Source: a virus
Taxonomy: Duplodnaviria; Caudoviricetes
Reading direction: 5' to 3' (one strand)
Virus record (IMG/VR): IMGVR_UViG_3300043447_000372
Span: 1-26,635 of that record
Length of the DNA: 26,635 bases
Within the stretch, counting starts at the first letter, position 1. Every line of letters starts with the position of its first letter. Of this stretch, positions 14,806 through 26,093 are shown piece by piece. The position numbers and the translations under genes are program-made. The notes under the pieces were generated by a model that was not told where the DNA came from, did not search any database, and saw nothing but the letters and a program-made list of their open reading frames with translations.

Positions 14806-14814
14806 ATTATACCA
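14806..14814 (-). promoter_or_regulatory. Extended -10 promoter TGGTATAAT, (near-)leaderless
   Basis: TGGTATAAT-AGATACGAT-ATG; no SD before the protease start. Confidence 0.7.
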
Positions 14815-19039: not shown

Positions 19040-19048
19040 AGTATAGCA
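19040..19048 (-). promoter_or_regulatory. Extended -10 promoter TGCTATACT for nrdJ
   Basis: Intergenic, downstream of a terminator, about 60 nt before the ATG, with SD-like AAAGGT. Confidence 0.65.
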
Positions 19049-19072: not shown

Positions 19073-19107
19073 AAATAAAAAGGCTATACCTTATCTTTAG
19101 GTATAGC
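19073..19107 (-). terminator. Intrinsic terminator ending the fibre/accessory operon
   Basis: GCTATACCT-AAAGATA-AGGTATAGC perfect 9-bp stem followed by CTTTTTATTT. Confidence 0.75.
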
Positions 19108-19137: not shown

Positions 19138-19404
19138 TTAAGATTTTGGCAATCCGTCATCGGTTATGCCATCTTTAAGGTTTGACTTAACCTGTTCCCA
19201 CTTATGCAAAGGACAAGAAGCATTGGGAAGCTTAACCTTTAGATTCATAATACATCCACACTCTTTGCATTGGTGAGTAGAAGAAATATACTTTGGACAC
19301 TGTTTGCAAATATCTAGTCTTTTTTCGGCAATCTCCCCCTCAACACGACCTATGCTTTTATTCAAAAGGTCCCAAGGTCTAGCTGGTCTATTCTGTTCAC
19401 TCAT
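19138..19404 (-). CDS. Small six-cysteine putative metal-binding protein (DUF6171-like)
   Basis: RLDICKQC...QCKECGCIMNLKV...SCPLHKW; overlaps the upstream stop. Confidence 0.7.
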   Translation of the reverse strand: MSEQNRPARPWDLLNKSIGRVEGEIAEKRLDICKQCPKYISSTHQCKECGCIMNLKVKLPNASCPLHKWEQVKSNLKDGITDDGLPKS

Positions 19405-20245
19405 TTGGCTTATCCTTTATTCTTTTCTGATGATTTTTATATGGTTTCTGGTTTATGTGAATGCCCTTGAAATATCTTCTACCTGAATCATTTACTTTTC
19501 CAATATCCCCACCTTCTCTTTCTGGGTTTTGTCTTTCCCACTGAAGGTTTTCAGCACTCATTCTTTCATTATACAACAATTCTTCAGGAAAAAGCTTTTT
19601 TGCTGGAACAAGCTCAAAGTTTTCAACATAGAATCTTGGGATTGGAATAAATCCAGAAAGCCAATCACCCTTTTTGATCTTAATAATTTTATTTGGGGTT
19701 GTAACCCTAACGTTAAACGTAAAAGATCTTCTTAGATTATCTGACTCAACAACACCATTCATAAAGTGTAGGCCATCTATATAATGGTTAGGTGGCTGAG
19801 TTACAAGAATATTTACGTTGGGAGGAGTCTTAAGAATAAATTTATTTTCAATACTTAAAACACCATTTCTAAAGTTATTCAGATAAGATTGAATTGACTG
19901 TAGATTGTTAAACCCTTCAGACTTTACCTCAACTGGATTTTCTGTTCCGTCCCAGAATAACTCTGCGTCGTGTTGTGCCTTAACTACAAAGCCATACTGG
20001 TTTGCAATTGTTAATGGCAAGCACATAGAAAATGCAATATGATTAAACCAATCACGATTAGGTTGACCAACTAATGTTTCAACAACATCGTCTATATTGT
20101 ATCCTTGTTCAGAATAGTTATACCAAGCAATAGTATTATCTGGAACTTCATACCCTGGATCATTGATGTATGGCTTATTTTCTTTTTCAACAAACCTATT
20201 TTTTAATGAAGATTTATATTCTTCCCAAAGTGATTTATTGGACAT
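19397..20245 (-). CDS. DUF6065-like protein (dUTPase-like fold suspected), paralog 3
   Basis: RDWF...CLPLTIANQYGF, KTPPNVNILVTQPPN, GVVESD and IKKGDWL motifs. Confidence 0.7.
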   Translation of the reverse strand: MSNKSLWEEYKSSLKNRFVEKENKPYINDPGYEVPDNTIAWYNYSEQGYNIDDVVETLVGQPNRDWFNHIAFSMCLPLTIANQYGFVVKAQHDAELFWDGTENPVEVKSEGFNNLQSIQSYLNNFRNGVLSIENKFILKTPPNVNILVTQPPNHYIDGLHFMNGVVESDNLRRSFTFNVRVTTPNKIIKIKKGDWLSGFIPIPRFYVENFELVPAKKLFPEELLYNERMSAENLQWERQNPEREGGDIGKVNDSGRRYFKGIHINQKPYKNHQKRIKDKPNE

Positions 20246-20901
20246 TAGCTATAAAGCTTTCTCTTCCAAAACTTTCTCTTGTACTTTGAAAAAGGTGGAT
20301 CTGACCACTTCCAGAACTCCTTGTATGCGTAAGATTCTTCTTCATCTCCAAAATCAGACTTCCAGTCATCTCTCTTAATTGGAATAGCTTGAACAATTGG
20401 TGTTCCTGCAGGGATCAATCCGCTAAAACCCTTTTTGATAAAGAATGGAAATTGTACAGAAAGAGGAAACTCATCTGTATCAACGACTGCACTTAAGGAT
20501 GTGAATGGCAAATCTGCACGATTTAAGGGATGAACAAAAAGTGTACTATACCCTTTTGGAGTTTGCAAGAAAAACTTATTGATCCACTTGTATGGGTGTG
20601 GCTCTACATCATCTCCATAGTGCCAACCATCAAGCTGAAAGTCTGCATGGTAGGTGACAACTTCTGAAACACCATTATCTGTAAATCTTTTTAGCTCTGC
20701 GTCGTAGTATACATCAGCTGATGTTTTAAAAACATACCCCGTTGTTAATGCATCTAATACAGGAACACATTTTTTTATTGTCATATTATTATTAACAATA
20801 GGAGGAATATCCTTAAACCACTGAGGAATTTGTTTTACAGATGGCTCAGGCTTTACCCAATCAATTGAAACATCTTCTGATCTAAATTTAATTTTCTTCA
20901 T
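20245..20901 (-). CDS. DUF6065-like protein, paralog 2 (218 aa, MKKIKF...)
   Basis: IPQWFK, KKCVPVLDALTTGY, TPKGYSTLFVHPLNR and IPAGTPIVQAIPIKRDDW; start chosen by alignment with paralog 1 (MKLIKF). Confidence 0.75.
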   Translation of the reverse strand: MKKIKFRSEDVSIDWVKPEPSVKQIPQWFKDIPPIVNNNMTIKKCVPVLDALTTGYVFKTSADVYYDAELKRFTDNGVSEVVTYHADFQLDGWHYGDDVEPHPYKWINKFFLQTPKGYSTLFVHPLNRADLPFTSLSAVVDTDEFPLSVQFPFFIKKGFSGLIPAGTPIVQAIPIKRDDWKSDFGDEEESYAYKEFWKWSDPPFSKYKRKFWKRKLYS

Positions 20902-21163
20902 GATTATGTTCAAACTCACCCTTCTCAGAGCTATATTTAACTCCAATCCCTGGCTTCATTTCTAGGTCTGTTATGTCCACAAAAGTAGGATCACTTAAAA
21001 GCATTGCTGCAAGCTTTGTCTCTGTTCTAATAACATCTTGCACCTCATCGTCAAGAACAATAGCAATACTGTAAATCTTAACATCAGAGTGCATGCTTTT
21101 TGGTTCTTTTACTGAATCAACAGTAGGGCTAGACTTTTGTATCTTTTTCTTTTTATTAAACAT
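20888..21163 (-). CDS. Small hypothetical protein, paralog of 21893..22108
   Basis: AIVLDDEVQDVI...LAAMLLSDPTFVDI...PGIG; coupled to genes on both sides. Confidence 0.7.
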   Translation of the reverse strand: MFNKKKKIQKSSPTVDSVKEPKSMHSDVKIYSIAIVLDDEVQDVIRTETKLAAMLLSDPTFVDITDLEMKPGIGVKYSSEKGEFEHNHEEN

Positions 21164-21888
21164 TATTTAAACTCTTTTCTCGTCCAAAGCTTTTTCTTGT
21201 AGCTTCCCTCTTTTGTTCTGAGGTGTTTTGCAATCTTTTCACGTCTTTCATCATTAAAGATTCCGCCCCTCTCAACAAACATTTGCCACTTATCTCTCTT
21301 GAATGGATAAATTTGTGCAAATGGAGTTCCTGCTGGAATAACACCTTCAAAGTCACTCTTTAGGAAGAATGGAATATTTCCACCTAAAGTAAACTTATCA
21401 CTATCCATAATAGCACTTAAAGTCATAAATGGCAAGTCGTGCCTATTAAATGGGTGCGTAACAAATGTACTGTATCCTCTTGGTGTTTTCCAGGACCAGT
21501 AGGTATACCAAGTAAACCCTGTCTTTTGAAAACCAACTGGCCGTGGGATTGTTGGTCCAAGTTGTGGTGGACGCTGCCCAACAAAAGGCATAACATCGTC
21601 TTCTTCTATGTTTGGAGCATTAAATTTTATCTCTGTTTCTCCATTTTCATTTTTAATAACATAAATATCAAATGGAGTTAAAAGAGTATATCCAGTCATC
21701 ATGATTTCCATAAATGGGATGCAGGCTTTCATCCCAGCATTATCTTCATGTTCACTATGCTTAGGGTGTAGTGGTGACTCAAATGTTAACTCCCCGTCTT
21801 TCCACCACTGAGGTAATTCTGTTCTAATTGGACGAGGCGTTGTTTCTTCTATAACCTTTGACCAAGGAATAAATTTGATAAGCTTCAT
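21163..21888 (-). CDS. DUF6065-like protein, paralog 1
   Basis: LPQWWK, KACIPFMEIMMTGY, TPRGYSTFVTHPFNR and IPAGTPFAQIYPFKRDKW. Confidence 0.75.
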   Translation of the reverse strand: MKLIKFIPWSKVIEETTPRPIRTELPQWWKDGELTFESPLHPKHSEHEDNAGMKACIPFMEIMMTGYTLLTPFDIYVIKNENGETEIKFNAPNIEEDDVMPFVGQRPPQLGPTIPRPVGFQKTGFTWYTYWSWKTPRGYSTFVTHPFNRHDLPFMTLSAIMDSDKFTLGGNIPFFLKSDFEGVIPAGTPFAQIYPFKRDKWQMFVERGGIFNDERREKIAKHLRTKEGSYKKKLWTRKEFK

Positions 21889-21892
21889 GGCT

Positions 21893-22108
21893 TTATGCCT
21901 TTGCTTCTTCTATTGTCATTCCTGGTACTGTTGTTGGCTTGCATTTAATAATCTCAGGATTGAGGTCATAAAGGCTTCCCAGTAATTCATCAACAGTAAC
22001 TGTAATCTGAACTACTCCGTCAATACATAGAGCATATACATGTGCGTCTGGATCTACATGATACTGAACGTGCTCTTTTTCTGTTACAATCTCCCACTTT
22101 TTTGTCAT
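21893..22108 (-). CDS. Small hypothetical protein
   Basis: 71 aa filling the gap between neighbours; ALCIDGVVQITV...LGSLYDLNPEIIKC...PGMT aligns with the 91-aa ORF. Confidence 0.7.
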   Translation of the reverse strand: MTKKWEIVTEKEHVQYHVDPDAHVYALCIDGVVQITVTVDELLGSLYDLNPEIIKCKPTTVPGMTIEEAKA

Positions 22109-22122
22109 TTTTTTTGCTCTTT

Positions 22123-23208
22123 CTATTGTATTGTAATCTCGTCTGTAGATAATGACTGATTATAAGCACTATCTGATGCAATTATACCATAATTGGTCAC
22201 AATTGTAACTCCAGTGGCGTTGTGAACTAGGTCGCTACCAATTTGTGTTACAGCGGATGTATCAGAAAATGCCTTTGCCGTAACTGTAGCTGTTCCATTT
22301 GTTTTATTTGAGTTTGTAATTGCAACCTTGATTGCTCTAATGGCTGAAAAAGATGTTATAGAATCAAGAGTTACAGATGCAATTTCGCTAAGTGTGTTTG
22401 ATGCATACTTATATAACTTAAGATATCTTGGGTATGTATTTGCATAAGATGCACAGCTTCCTCCAGTACCTACACAAGGGTTTGTATATCCGCATGGGTT
22501 ATATGGGTTTGTAGCTCCACAAGGATTATATGGGTTTGTAGATGCACAAGGGTTATATGGGTTTGTGTATGCACAAGGGTTATATGGATTATAATATCCA
22601 CCTGAGCAACAAGAGTTATAATATGAGTAACTGTATGATGGATTTGTATAGCTGTATGTATATCCATACTTACAACTTCCGCCTGGATTATACATAGAAC
22701 ATGTATAGGATGATGCTGGGTTTCCAGAAACTGGAACTGTGGTTGAACATCCAGAACAAGGAACAGCGTTTCCTCCAGAACCTACGCAGTTACCGCTGGC
22801 CCCATTGCAGTTTCCTCCTGTACCAATACATCCACCACCTGTACCAACACAGGTTCCTCCAGAGCCACATGGGTTATAAGGGTTGTAAGAACTACAGGCT
22901 CCACATCCAGAACATGTCTCTTGCTTTGAAACAACAGACCACCAGGTGCCAGAATCAGAAACCCAAAGTGCAGCACCTGTTCCAACTCCTGGGTCCTTTA
23001 ATGTGATTGTTACGTTCTGATTTGTCATCTGAACTGTACGAATTGGATAGTTAGTATCTGCAGCTGTTGCTGTTCCTGCAGATGCTGACCAAGATCCTCT
23101 TACTGTTTTCCACCCTGAAGCAAAACCAGAGCCGAAGCTATCAGAGAACGATAGAAATGATTTCAATCTAGAAACTGTTACTTGCGTTTTTCTGGTTTTC
23201 TTTGCCAT
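22123..23208 (-). CDS. Putative virion adhesin: beta-sandwich (lectin-like) domain split by a 20-Cys repeat insert (361 aa)
   Basis: ATG at 23208 overlaps the fibre gene TAA. Flanks are beta-rich (FSDSF...GW...GSW, LWVSDSGTWWSV / YLKLYK, IKVAIT, YGII). All Cys lie in residues 99-252. Confidence 0.7.
   Translation of the reverse strand: MAKKTRKTQVTVSRLKSFLSFSDSFGSGFASGWKTVRGSWSASAGTATAADTNYPIRTVQMTNQNVTITLKDPGVGTGAALWVSDSGTWWSVVSKQETCSGCGACSSYNPYNPCGSGGTCVGTGGGCIGTGGNCNGASGNCVGSGGNAVPCSGCSTTVPVSGNPASSYTCSMYNPGGSCKYGYTYSYTNPSYSYSYYNSCCSGGYYNPYNPCAYTNPYNPCASTNPYNPCGATNPYNPCGYTNPCVGTGGSCASYANTYPRYLKLYKYASNTLSEIASVTLDSITSFSAIRAIKVAITNSNKTNGTATVTAKAFSDTSAVTQIGSDLVHNATGVTIVTNYGIIASDSAYNQSLSTDEITIQ
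22492..22599. repeat. Four imperfect 27-bp tandem repeats encoding xxT/YNPYNPC
   Basis: Units start at 22492, 22519, 22546 and 22573; consensus on + is acaagggttatatgggtttgtagatgc. Confidence 0.9.
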
Positions 23209-26060
23209 TATGCTGCTGTGTCTCCCACTACTATCCATGAGTTAGCTGCAATTTTTTCCAAAACAATTTCGCTGTACTGTACACGAGACTTGAATTGGCT
23301 ATCTGTTGCAACTACTGTAGTTGTTGCTGGTGTAGCTGCTGCTACTGTAATCTGTCCTGTTCCCATTTGGCGAATATTTACATATGTACCAATTGGCCAG
23401 TCATCGGACGCATCTGTTGGGATGCTTACTGATACTGCTGAATTGCTTGTGCAATGTACTGTTTTAAACATGTGCGTTGACTGAGCAACCGTTAATGATG
23501 TACCGCTGACAGAAACATAAGCAACCTTGTTGTCTTCTTGAACATAAGCGGTTGTAGCAACCTGTGTTGTGTTTGTAAGTGCTGCAGCTGTTGGAGCTGT
23601 TGGAGTTCCAGTTAGTGCTGGAGACTCTAGAGGAGCCTTATCATCTAGCTGTGTCTGAATTGCTGAGGTAACACCATTTAGGTAACCAAACTCAGTATTA
23701 GAAACATCTCCTACTGTAATTGATGAGGCAGTAAGTCCACCTACGCTAATGTCATCAAGTGATCCTTGTCCAAAGTTGACTGTGGATGTTGGTTCATCAG
23801 TTACGCCCTTGAAGAGTTTCCAAGTTCCTGCTGATGCATCACGAACAAGACCTACGTGCTGGTAAGTGCCGTCGTTCATTGCTCCAACAAATCCAATGTC
23901 ATTGATATTTGCTGTATTTCCTTCAGCAAGATAAATCATTGGATCTTCAAGTGTTAGGTCAGTCTGATTAATCTGTGTTGCTGTACCGCTAAAGGTTAAA
24001 GCTCCACCAATTTCAAGATCGTCAACAGTTACTGTTCCTGTGAATGTTCCTCCATCAAGAACGGCATCTACTGCATTATCAACATATCCCTTTGTAGCAA
24101 CTTCATTTCCTGCAACTGATGAGTCATTTATGTATACTTCATAACCAGGGTTTACATAGAGCATCATGTCTCCATCTATTGCTCCAAGCCCTAAACCAGA
24201 CCCACCTTGAATCTGGAGAGATACTCCTGTATTTGAAGCAATGTTCATTGATCCGTCAAGGAATCCGTAATCTTGCACTACTCCAGCGGTTCCAACAGCA
24301 AACTTGCCAACTGCAGTTATATCGTTAGCAGAAAAATTACCTGAACTGTCACGCTTTACTACCTTATTAGCAGTGTTTGCTGAAACAGCATCTGCTGATG
24401 CAAGTTTAGCCTCTATCTGTGTCTGAATCGCTGAGGTAACACCCTCAAGATAGCCAATTTCAGTATCTGTAACGTTTCCAACTCTCTTCTGAATAACACT
24501 TGTTCCCCACTTAATGTCTTTTCCAGAACCTGGGGTGAGGACTATGTTATCGTTAGAGCTTATTGTGAAGTCACCTGTATTATTTAGTGTGATATCTCCA
24601 GTAAATGTTGGAGAATCGCTTTGTGCTTTTGCATCAATCTGTGTTTGAATTGCAGAAGTGACACCATCAAGATATCCAATTTCTACCGAAGATACTCCAG
24701 ACACAACATCTTGTTTTGTACTTAGATCAATGTTACCTACTGCTGTGTCTACATATGTTGTTGTTGCAAGAGCTGTCATGTCTGCAACTCCATGAACGTT
24801 TGTAGTCTCTGATGCATGTGTTGATAAATCTGAAGATGTTGCAACAGTAGTTCCACTAAGCTTTAATGATGGAACATCAATTGATCCTCCAGTAATTGTG
24901 GAACCGTCAATTGTTGCAGTCTCTATTGTTGCAGACAATAATGTTTTGTTTTGTAGTGACTCTGTTCCAGAAATTGTAGCAATATTGGCATCTGTTACAG
25001 ATGTGTTTAATTCTGATAAAGTCATTGTTACTGAGTTATTGGCAAAATCAATACCCTTATTTGTAAGGGTCTGAGCATCACTAAGGGTTGCAACTGTGTC
25101 ATCAATACCAATTACGCCAGGAGCTGTCTCCCAGAGTCCTGTACCAGCAACTACTGTCTTTCCAGCATTAAATGGTGCGTAGGTAACTTCTGTTGTTCCT
25201 ACTGTGATTGCTCCAGATGTTGAGTTTACGAATCCGTACCCTGCATTTACATCTCCAGAAATAACTAGATTAAAGTCTCCAGCTTTGAACTCTCCAGCTG
25301 GTGAGTTATCTGCATCTGATGCACGAACAAGCTCCCAGTTAACCAGGGGTGATCCTACTACGGAAACAACATATACACCATTTTGCTTAGCATCTGTTTG
25401 ATCCTTGACAAGGACTCTATCATCTGCTAAAAGTGTTACTCCATCAATGACAAGCCCTGCCATTGTTCCTGAGTTAGTAAGTGTTGCACCAACTCCGCTT
25501 GTTCCGTTTGAGTATGATGCTGTAAGGGCTTCAACTGTGGCTGCTTTTACTGCCTCGTGAAAATTAATTCCTGAAACTACATTGTCAACGTAAAGCTTTG
25601 TTGCTGCTTCAAGGTCTGCTGTTGGTGCCTGAGATAGTGTAAGTGTTCCCGTAATTTCAACGTCATGGGATAGAGCAATGGTAATTGTGTCAGCTCCATC
25701 ATTGTATTCCTTGGAGATACCGTTTCCTGCTGTTATTGCTGATGCTACTGCATCCTGAGAAATTTCATCAATGTTTGGAATCTGTGAAGATAAAAGCTTT
25801 CCTGATCCATCAAGTGTTGCAACTCCAAGTGGCTGAGCAAGATCTGATGTTGGTACAAACCCATCAAGGCTGCCTCCGATAGATGCCTCATCAAGGAAGT
25901 ACTGAAGATCAACCCAGTGGTTAACGCCGTCACCAATCTTAAACTTGTTAGTATCTGATTCGTATCCAACTTCACCAGCTGCTAGAATTGGACCATTTCC
26001 ATTGTTAGTAGAGATCCACTGTGCTGCGGTTCCTCTACGCTGTTGCATTCTTGTTGACAT
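23208..26060 (-). CDS. Fibre-like structural protein (950 aa) with Mtd/hyaluronidase-type N-terminal anchor
   Basis: N-terminal QRRGTAAQW...LAAGEVGYESDTNKFKIGDG..W, repeated ATKxYVD and GYLxGVTSAIQTQ modules, Thr/Gly/Ser-rich; SD AAGGAG. Confidence 0.85.
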   Translation of the reverse strand: MSTRMQQRRGTAAQWISTNNGNGPILAAGEVGYESDTNKFKIGDGVNHWVDLQYFLDEASIGGSLDGFVPTSDLAQPLGVATLDGSGKLLSSQIPNIDEISQDAVASAITAGNGISKEYNDGADTITIALSHDVEITGTLTLSQAPTADLEAATKLYVDNVVSGINFHEAVKAATVEALTASYSNGTSGVGATLTNSGTMAGLVIDGVTLLADDRVLVKDQTDAKQNGVYVVSVVGSPLVNWELVRASDADNSPAGEFKAGDFNLVISGDVNAGYGFVNSTSGAITVGTTEVTYAPFNAGKTVVAGTGLWETAPGVIGIDDTVATLSDAQTLTNKGIDFANNSVTMTLSELNTSVTDANIATISGTESLQNKTLLSATIETATIDGSTITGGSIDVPSLKLSGTTVATSSDLSTHASETTNVHGVADMTALATTTYVDTAVGNIDLSTKQDVVSGVSSVEIGYLDGVTSAIQTQIDAKAQSDSPTFTGDITLNNTGDFTISSNDNIVLTPGSGKDIKWGTSVIQKRVGNVTDTEIGYLEGVTSAIQTQIEAKLASADAVSANTANKVVKRDSSGNFSANDITAVGKFAVGTAGVVQDYGFLDGSMNIASNTGVSLQIQGGSGLGLGAIDGDMMLYVNPGYEVYINDSSVAGNEVATKGYVDNAVDAVLDGGTFTGTVTVDDLEIGGALTFSGTATQINQTDLTLEDPMIYLAEGNTANINDIGFVGAMNDGTYQHVGLVRDASAGTWKLFKGVTDEPTSTVNFGQGSLDDISVGGLTASSITVGDVSNTEFGYLNGVTSAIQTQLDDKAPLESPALTGTPTAPTAAALTNTTQVATTAYVQEDNKVAYVSVSGTSLTVAQSTHMFKTVHCTSNSAVSVSIPTDASDDWPIGTYVNIRQMGTGQITVAAATPATTTVVATDSQFKSRVQYSEIVLEKIAANSWIVVGDTAA
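23650..24665. repeat. Three dispersed 26-bp repeats encoding GVTSAIQTQ
   Basis: 23650-23675 and 24418-24443 differ at one base; a more diverged copy is at 24640-24665. Confidence 0.8.
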
Positions 26061-26084: not shown

Positions 26085-26093
26085 ATTATATCA
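26085..26093 (-). promoter_or_regulatory. Extended -10 promoter TGATATAAT
   Basis: Intergenic, upstream of SD AAGGAG and the fibre gene ATG. Confidence 0.7.

Follow-up and report, generated by a model that had tools for sequence, protein, structure and literature searches.

The window discussed here is a stretch of 26,635 nucleotides (IMG/VR record IMGVR_UViG_3300043447_000372), a 26.6-kb siphovirus contig that encodes portal, protease, capsid and tape measure proteins as well as a class II ribonucleotide reductase (RNR). Of interest is a run of eight genes that starts with a tail fibre and a cysteine-rich protein of 361 amino acids (aa), which we call the ladder protein, and ends with a six-cysteine protein of the DUF6171 family. 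The three best DNA sequencing runs containing window sequence are of freshwater origin, one of them perhaps its source, and one RNA run contained it as well (share 0.06). Since whiB is present in all five related genomes, the phage hosts are pointed to as actinobacterial (freshwater Actinobacteria).

The gene run is real and travels as a cassette. All eight open reading frames (ORFs) lie on the minus strand in the order given by a preliminary description of this DNA, whose claim of one tightly coupled operon agrees with intergenic gaps along the cassette of -1, 14, 4, -1, -14, -1 and -8 nt. The full order is kept in nine of the ten loci found with DUF6065-like 1, the tenth being cut off, and the flanking contexts of these conserved cassettes differ, being of several kinds and mostly without an adjoining RNR gene. 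The features are listed below; the start of DUF6065-like 2 as first given had to be corrected to 20901 (218 aa).

26085..26093, minus strand: extended -10 promoter-like element TGATATAAT ahead of the fibre gene; the same motif precedes three other gene starts in the window
23208..26060, minus strand: fibre or minor tail protein (950 aa) with an N-terminal Mtd_N; matches phrog_8780 (minor tail protein, E 4.6e-17)
22123..23208, minus strand: ladder protein, 361 aa, conserved N- and C-terminal flanks around a variable insert
22453..22914, minus strand: cysteine insert, residues 99-252, 20 Cys, with putative pairing from mirror spacing
22181..22189, minus strand: second element, TGGTATAAT, inside the 3' end of the ladder gene; consensus match only
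21893..22108, minus strand: small protein A, 71 aa, paralogue of small protein B (hhalign 98.6%); no family match
21163..21888, minus strand: DUF6065-like 1, 241 aa, one Cys (KxCxP); phrog_7084, E 2.4e-32
20888..21163, minus strand: small protein B, 91 aa, lacks Cys; retained next to Cys-free ladders
20245..20901, minus strand: DUF6065-like 2, 218 aa, predicted dUTPase/dCTP-deaminase fold (residues 4-218 modelled)
19397..20245, minus strand: DUF6065 protein 3, 282 aa; PF19541, 112.5 bits (cut-off 26.6)
19138..19404, minus strand: DUF6171 six-Cys protein, 88 aa (CxxC, CxxCxC, CP...W); PF19668, 33.7 bits (cut-off 27); phrog_13558
19083..19107, minus strand: intrinsic terminator-like hairpin, U-tract to about 19074

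The cysteine insert and DUF6171

The ladder protein indeed has the 20 cysteines of the preliminary description, at residues 99-252. Searches of Pfam, PHROG, NCBIfam and PDB sequences gave no match for it, none of the cultured phage records matches it, and 85 homologues were found. These have about 95 residues in common at the N end and 105 at the C end, likely forming one beta-rich domain (a lectin-like fold is no more than an impression), and between them a hypervariable insert of 133-380 residues that is rich in G, N, C, T, S, Y and P and has 8-42 cysteines in the Cys-bearing ladders. Among the 70 homologues kept by a flank filter (15 of the 85 hits were left out), the cysteine count is even in 66, odd in two and zero in two, which makes it even in 66/68 Cys-bearing proteins. 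The spacings are palindromic around a central tip and the repeat numbers of the two arms rise together, with 2+2, 3+3 and 7+7 repeats in homologues P0011, P0012 and P0016, respectively, and three CxxC opposite three CC in P0002 (three and three in P0002/P0003). Equal arm counts were found in 14/18 members of the window's subfamily (rho 0.97) and in 17/29 of a second subfamily. When 38 clusters at 70% identity (80 usable of the 85 homologues) were compared with 1000 shuffles, mirror matches totalled 287, whereas the shuffles averaged 209 and never exceeded 223; mirror spacing reached p<0.05 in 21 of the clusters, and the window protein had 7/8 mirror matches (p=0.003). Mirror spacing, even counts and co-expansion of the arms would all be expected of an antiparallel hairpin whose cross-links are nested, and it is quite probable that the insert is a ladder hairpin with nested disulfides. 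The cross-links would be disulfides rather than metal sites, and the spacing suggests nested pairs 170-179 (tip), 154/151 with 200/201, 141-212, 134-221, 127-230, 120-239, 114-245 and 105-252, with a basal pair 99-102.

The C-terminal domain of the fibre, about 110 aa, is conserved and precedes the ladder gene in most loci; a PDB sequence search with it gave no significant match. The gene position suggests that the ladder protein caps the fibre, attached to this domain. Two contigs have a ladder gene that is interrupted at the hairpin tip (L062:5980-7004, L068:5827-6917), leaving a pair of ORFs with some 10 Cys apiece whose products would pair as separate chains. Tandem Cys-free ladder paralogues whose inserts carry Tyr/Thr-rich repeats occur at L043:4735-7567. 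The fibre-tip proteins of L153, L160 and L172 contain long PPFFPPFF repeats ending in a Cys knob, in one case within a ladder insert.

The presence of DUF6171 follows that of the cysteines. In a survey of 78 ladder loci, the complete ladder ORFs (60 of 83) fell into 43 clusters at 85%; DUF6171 lies within 4.5 kb downstream in 35/36 Cys-rich clusters (35/36 of these having an even Cys count) and in 0/7 Cys-free ones. DUF6065-like genes, by contrast, adjoin all seven Cys-free clusters and are missing beside three of the 36 Cys-rich ones (33/36 adjoined). The earlier idea of a cluster that tailors the cysteines is narrowed to DUF6171 as a candidate and is not supported for the cluster as a whole. 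The seven Cys-free clusters form a single clade (100/100), so the joint loss of cysteines and DUF6171 is one event, and a Fisher P of 2.5e-7 for the association was dropped as independent evidence. A whole-record search (records 11-44% complete) found a DUF6171 copy in one of the seven Cys-free contigs, beside a second, 16-Cys ladder. Ladder and DUF6171 occur together without DUF6065 at L033, L048, L071, L079, L092, L745 and L746. Near-complete genomes have two to three DUF6171 copies each: three of the extra copies come after unrelated PASTA or Fn3 proteins with 8-14 Cys, one after a second 16-Cys ladder (the Cys-free ladder of that genome being without one), two stand alone and one follows another gene.

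An estimated 5,600 or so stored viral stretches contain the DUF6171 motif. From 80 viral loci drawn by a DUF6171 DNA pattern, 74 were scored for Cys-cluster genes (at least 120 aa, at least 8 Cys, 5 Cys in 60 aa). Such a gene was among the first two upstream genes in 21/74 loci, compared with 2/153 downstream genes, and 18 of these 21 genes have an even Cys count. In a sample of 80 DUF6065-like loci drawn by pattern, of which the 60 of at least 8 kb were scored, 43 had neither a Cys-rich gene nor DUF6171, 11 had both, six had DUF6171 only and none had a Cys-rich gene only; DUF6171 was thus present in 11/11 loci with a Cys-rich gene. Co-occurrence with Cys-rich genes, which the preliminary description had offered as a check, was confirmed; it is DUF6171 that tracks these genes, and most of the DUF6065-like loci scored have none.

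DUF6171 is also found in 84 cultured-phage records, 13 regions of which were examined in translation. Directly upstream of it lie a gp37-gp38-annotated adhesin in S-SRM01 (11 Cys) and an ORF with 12 Cys in 129 aa in Leptospira phage LE1, and weaker cases of an upstream Cys cluster occur in S-LBS1, S-CBS2, S-IOM18, ct2os315 and Sf-FP1. In S-IOM18, a 9-Cys protein and DUF6171 are separated by a thioredoxin-like ORF with a CxxC motif (L094:2598-3011; Pfam E 0.0014). DUF6171 ORFs are unannotated in GenBank regions L093, L096, L097, L099, L102, L103, L104 and L106 of phages Sf-FP1, PSS2, S-CBWM1, RP13, X1, LE1, S-LBS1 and syn9, as is the 12-Cys ORF of LE1. Some Cys-free cassettes have other small proteins with 6-8 Cys and no Pfam match after their DUF6065 genes (L386:3902-4267, L081:2239-2730).

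A second setting is bacterial. In a sample of 80 bacterial DUF6171 loci the commonest neighbour is a GH51 arabinofuranosidase, and PGGC and WGCGG are present in 28/28 full-length GH51 neighbours in which both motifs were readable. By motif position, we take the cysteines of these motifs to be the disulfide pair of the crystal study cited next. According to PMC6087011, two such cysteines form a disulfide in crystals of XacAbf51 and TxAbfD3, the two residues being Asn and Gln in other GH51 structures. With sampling reversed to start from GH51 genes and DUF6171 scored within 3.5 kb, DUF6171 was near 15/20 Cys-type genes of Bacillota and 1/24 Asn-type (Cys-free) genes of Bacillota; the sole Asn-type case (L622) is explained by an adjoining Cys-type gene, the stop of which DUF6171 overlaps. 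The corresponding figures in other phyla are 0/53 and 0/51. Signal-like N ends, by a crude hydrophobicity rule, occur in 0/24 Bacillota enzymes versus 44/56 Cys-type enzymes of other phyla. DUF6171 genes coding for eight Cys stand directly beside Cys-type GH51 genes in arabinan-use operons (L232-L311, L476-L554) of Paenibacillaceae, Bacillaceae, Enterococcaceae and Clostridia. In two unrelated settings, DUF6171 hence goes with cytoplasm-made proteins that have cysteines known, or apparently able, to be paired.

The window's DUF6171 protein has the six conserved cysteines and terminal Trp of PF19668; the six are invariant in 47 phage sequences, and Bacillota copies add an N-terminal CxxC to give eight. 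Its model has a predicted local distance difference test (pLDDT) score of 79.6, with the core above 90. A PDB fold search with the 88-aa model gave nothing above Z 2.0, and its matches in BFVD are only uncharacterised viral proteins and entries labelled zinc ribbon; this speaks neither for a new fold nor against relatives, an Erv-type FAD-binding helical bundle included. The PDB sequence search gave nothing significant, with weak zinc-ribbon matches at E 0.08 or worse. No cassette protein matches an Erv/ALR sulfhydryl oxidase or a thioredoxin/Dsb family in Pfam or NCBIfam, and comparison of A1 and A3 with a thioredoxin profile gave less than 1%. We infer that four of the cysteines hold a metal in a zinc-ribbon-like manner and that the remaining pair is spare.

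Among the 120 listed of 253 DUF6171 fusions, the partners include N-acetylglucosamine (GlcNAc)-transferase-like domains (22), small proteins A/B, 2-oxoglutarate (2OG) oxygenases, DUF6065 and a two-Cys domain (30). PDB and Pfam searches with the two-Cys domain gave no match; its faint likeness to thioredoxin (hhalign 5.8%, E 0.0065, 32 columns; 30 shuffles at most 0.85%) is a lead only. It belongs to a phage family of about 220 aa, combining DUF6171 with two invariant Cys and found among collagen-like fibre genes (L747:4001-4663, P0289-P0325), of which P0323 also carries DUF6065. At L030:8736-10178 and L042:5903-7195, DUF6171 is fused to a PF11397 GlcNAc-transferase-like domain and followed by a methyltransferase and a GT2-TPR protein. 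Apparent ladder-DUF6171 fusions (P0206-P0209) were dropped as most likely read-through calls, since two close DNA loci have a TAG at the junction; at L745:1817-3445 and L746:2501-4123 the database proteins read TAG as Gln, and table 11 gives two genes. No paper naming DUF6171 or DUF6065 was found in a literature search that had subscription journals and supplements outside its scope, nor did a search on actinophages within that scope return any paper; both families are of unknown function.

The DUF6065-like proteins, small proteins and control elements

The preliminary description counted three DUF6065-like proteins. Protein 3 alone passes PF19541; proteins 1 and 2 match phrog_7084 and no Pfam family over its cut-off, with the link made by weak PF19541 matches in 72/116 aligned members and through Atlas clusters. 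That the accessory proteins bear cysteines holds for DUF6171 with its six; each DUF6065-like protein has exactly one, in a K-x-C-x-P motif invariant in 116/116 aligned sequences, and small protein B has none. The model of DUF6065-like 2 (pLDDT 93.9; best Foldseek E 1.3e-3) matches this fold with VIA Z 10.0 and rmsd 2.7 over 114 aligned residues, and all 23 rows with Z of at least 5 are dUTPase-fold chains, the next unrelated row being at Z 3.0. The family thereby gains a dUTPase-like predicted fold. PF00692, the dUTPase sequence family, has no match in the cassette proteins or the 116 DUF6065-like members, and the PDB sequence search with DUF6065 gave nothing significant. Comparison by eye with the five catalytic dUTPase motifs suggests that a motif-III-like VDTD remains and that the Gly-rich motif V is not evident.

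Among 82 neighbours scanned of 118 listed for DUF6065-like loci are 17 2OG-Fe(II) oxygenases, five sulfotransferases, five glycosyltransferases, three APS kinases, one RNR subunit and 10 other families, with 41 giving no Pfam hit; cassettes hold two to three diverged DUF6065-like copies. Most likely, the DUF6065 proteins are dUTPase-fold members of a separate virion/surface-decoration toolkit that is not cysteine-specific, acting as nucleotide(-sugar)-binding enzymes or pseudo-enzyme scaffolds; their targets may include Tyr, Pro, Asn or Thr residues in the insert, or sugars attached there. Small proteins A and B accompany both Cys-rich and Cys-free tips and therefore fit general assembly chaperones, for which they are likely candidates.

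The promoter at 26085 and terminator at 19073 of the preliminary description were both recovered, as the extended -10 element TGATATAAT at 26093-26085, which is not among the listed matches of a -35/-10 scan of the window, and as the hairpin at 19107-19083. The second element could be a separate, internal promoter for the accessory genes. TGnTATAAT occurs five times on the minus strand and not on the plus strand; minus-strand copies at 14814, 12033 and 7518, and TGnTATACT at 19048, 16875 and 9004, precede gene starts of the virion region, with none on the plus strand. These elements likely are a class of phage promoters. The accessory part is more AT-rich than the head genes, as had been noted by eye (36.3% versus 41.8% GC). 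Its GC content at third codon positions, 0.26-0.34, is the same as in the rest, and two other virion-block genes also have 36% GC; AT-richness as a sign of foreign origin was therefore rejected.

Interpretation and alternatives

We propose, with a probability of about one half, that the 361-aa protein is a tail-fibre tip (adhesin) with a nested disulfide-ladder insert and that DUF6171 is its dedicated thiol-handling factor. The insert cysteines would pair as a nested ladder hairpin, stapling the loop into a rod, and the ladder protein would attach to the C-terminal domain of the fibre. DUF6171 would help these cysteines to pair correctly in the host cytoplasm, four of its own holding metal while C51/C64 exchange with client thiols, in the direction of net oxidation, isomerisation or protection. 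Small proteins A and B would serve as general assembly chaperones, and the DUF6065 proteins would act in a separate decoration toolkit with 2OG oxygenases, glycosyl- and sulfotransferases. The earlier interpretation is in this way partly supported, narrowed from six helpers to one. Taken by itself, a thiol-handling role of DUF6171 has even odds. That it is a true disulfide-forming catalyst is a tentative suggestion, and it is similarly speculative that it represents a class of small metal-Cys disulfide catalysts of the bacterial cytoplasm, serving Cys-rich phage tips as well as the active-site disulfide of Bacillota GH51.

Several observations weigh against this proposal. Cys-free inserts exist, so the ladder architecture works without disulfides. 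A wider ladder tree (50 rows; seven ORFs missed by the filter were added and 53 Cys-rich rows thinned to 38) has a second, independent Cys-free clade (L365, L403) that retains DUF6171; joint loss is therefore one event of two, one for and one against. The Cys-rich ladder L059 has no DUF6171 nearby, with two copies elsewhere in its genome, and no Cys-cluster neighbour was present in 53/74 viral DUF6171 loci and 6/13 cultured-phage regions. For twelve signal-less Cys-type GH51 enzymes from other phyla, no DUF6171 lies within 3.5 kb, and the association of GH51 with DUF6171 traces to one Bacillota clade in which it was inherited and later lost in places. DUF6171 is thus not required by every such Cys-paired cytoplasmic protein. 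Many of these Bacillota are anaerobic, which argues against an O2-using oxidase, and DUF6171 has no sequence resemblance to known redox enzymes. Furthermore, according to PMC13576161 and 10.64898/2026.07.24.740622, phage disulfides could form unaided after lysis.

The last point leads to the alternative that the ladder is disulfide-bonded but self-oxidises at or after lysis, and that DUF6171, itself redox-inert, binds the clients or small A/B as a zinc-ribbon chaperone, adaptor or cap and leaves their thiols alone. The zinc-ribbon-like motif and weak matches would fit this, as would the fusions to small A/B, GlcNAc transferases and 2OG oxygenases, which resemble those of a portable adaptor, the retention of DUF6171 in one Cys-free ladder clade, and the spontaneous oxidation raised in PMC13576161 and the Jabs preprint. 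A plain binding surface, however, hardly explains a preference for Cys-bearing clients of unrelated folds (ladder, PASTA/Fn3 tips, GH51 of Cys-type over Asn-type), and we consider this explanation rather doubtful. It is unlikely that the ladder cysteines bind zinc or iron, CxxC facing CC in four-Cys sites, with DUF6171 as a metal-delivery chaperone: most rungs are single cysteines 5-12 residues apart, and crystals show the pair of GH51 as a disulfide (PMC6087011), even though CxxC units of one arm co-expand with CC units of the other (P0002/P0003), thiolate-metal sites form readily in cytoplasm, and the six Cys of phage DUF6171, versus eight in Bacillota, would leave a half-open metal site.

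Both remaining explanations give the central part to the DUF6065-like proteins. Catalysis of ladder oxidation or modification by their invariant Cys, as the preliminary description had it in full, would agree with the conserved K-x-C-x-P, their position beside 33/36 Cys-rich clusters and the tight gene coupling, but becomes very improbable with their retention in 7/7 Cys-free clusters, their absence from minimal ladder cassettes, the 43/60 loci without a Cys-rich gene and the dUTPase fold. That fold (23/23 rows with Z of at least 5) also bears on the outcome which the preliminary description had named as speaking against itself, namely that the accessory proteins are nucleotide enzymes: the fold of DUF6065-like 2 agrees with it, the lack of a dUTPase-family sequence match does not. 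If they were working dUTPases or dCTP deaminases, the cassette would be a chance mix of tail and nucleotide genes beside RNR, which follows it in the window, and a canonical dUTPase is indeed absent from the five related genomes searched. This is the least credible of the explanations, as the cassette order is kept across differing flanks mostly without adjoining RNR, 30/82 neighbours are oxygenases, glycosyl-/sulfotransferases or APS kinases as against one nucleotide enzyme, two to three diverged copies occur per cassette with 0/116 matching PF00692, and DUF6171 is left unaccounted for.

If DUF6171 is indeed such a disulfide catalyst, thousands of aquatic phages would use it, no other oxidative-folding factor encoded by a phage having come before it, and the ladder would be a new type of adhesin, a disulfide-ladder rod of tunable length. 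A thiol-handling DUF6171 would explain the long, hypervariable, rigid binding loops displayed by phages of freshwater Actinobacteria, and could help to produce disulfide-rich proteins in cytoplasm. With its 88 aa, it is a concrete candidate whose two classes of clients are unrelated, one of them being found in culturable Bacillota.

Comparison with known systems

DUF6065-like 2 is predicted to share its fold with the trimeric dUTPase/dCTP deaminase superfamily, including its repurposed viral members HCMV (human cytomegalovirus) pp71, MHV-68 (murine herpesvirus 68) ORF10 and baculovirus TLP20 (Z 10.0-5.7), and differs in its 7-15% identity, its own invariant KxCxP and the several paralogues among modifying enzymes. 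Cassettes of fibre, adhesin and chaperone genes are known as gp37-gp38 of T4/T2, stf-tfa of lambda and S-U of Mu. As in these, the fibre is followed by a translationally coupled tip with a conserved scaffold and a hypervariable part, and then by small helpers; unlike in these, the variable part is one predicted mirror hairpin of 130-380 residues with 8-42 cysteines, and neither the ladder protein nor small A/B gave a hidden Markov model match to gp38-type adhesin or Tfa families.

The cytoplasmic disulfide pathway of poxviruses (E10R, A2.5L, G4L) provides virus-encoded help for disulfides of virion proteins in a reducing cytoplasm. This pathway and the mimivirus Erv-family sulfhydryl oxidase R596 are named in PMC13576161. 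By analogy, the cassette may offer the same kind of help, here in a bacteriophage and through an 88-aa protein with six Cys that lacks an Erv or thioredoxin sequence match and a PDB fold match. For bacterial viruses, no disulfide helper of this kind is described in the papers found. Disulfide-cross-linked siphophage virions are described for the tail-tube protein gp39 (PMC13576161) and phage Jabs (10.64898/2026.07.24.740622); the available portions of both report inter-subunit disulfides and name no catalyst, the machinery being undescribed or left open. The ladder tip resembles gp39 and Jabs in being a tailed-phage structural protein with disulfides, putative in its case, despite assembly in the cytoplasm. 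It differs from them in that each bond would lie within one chain and in having a gene for a candidate factor next to its own.

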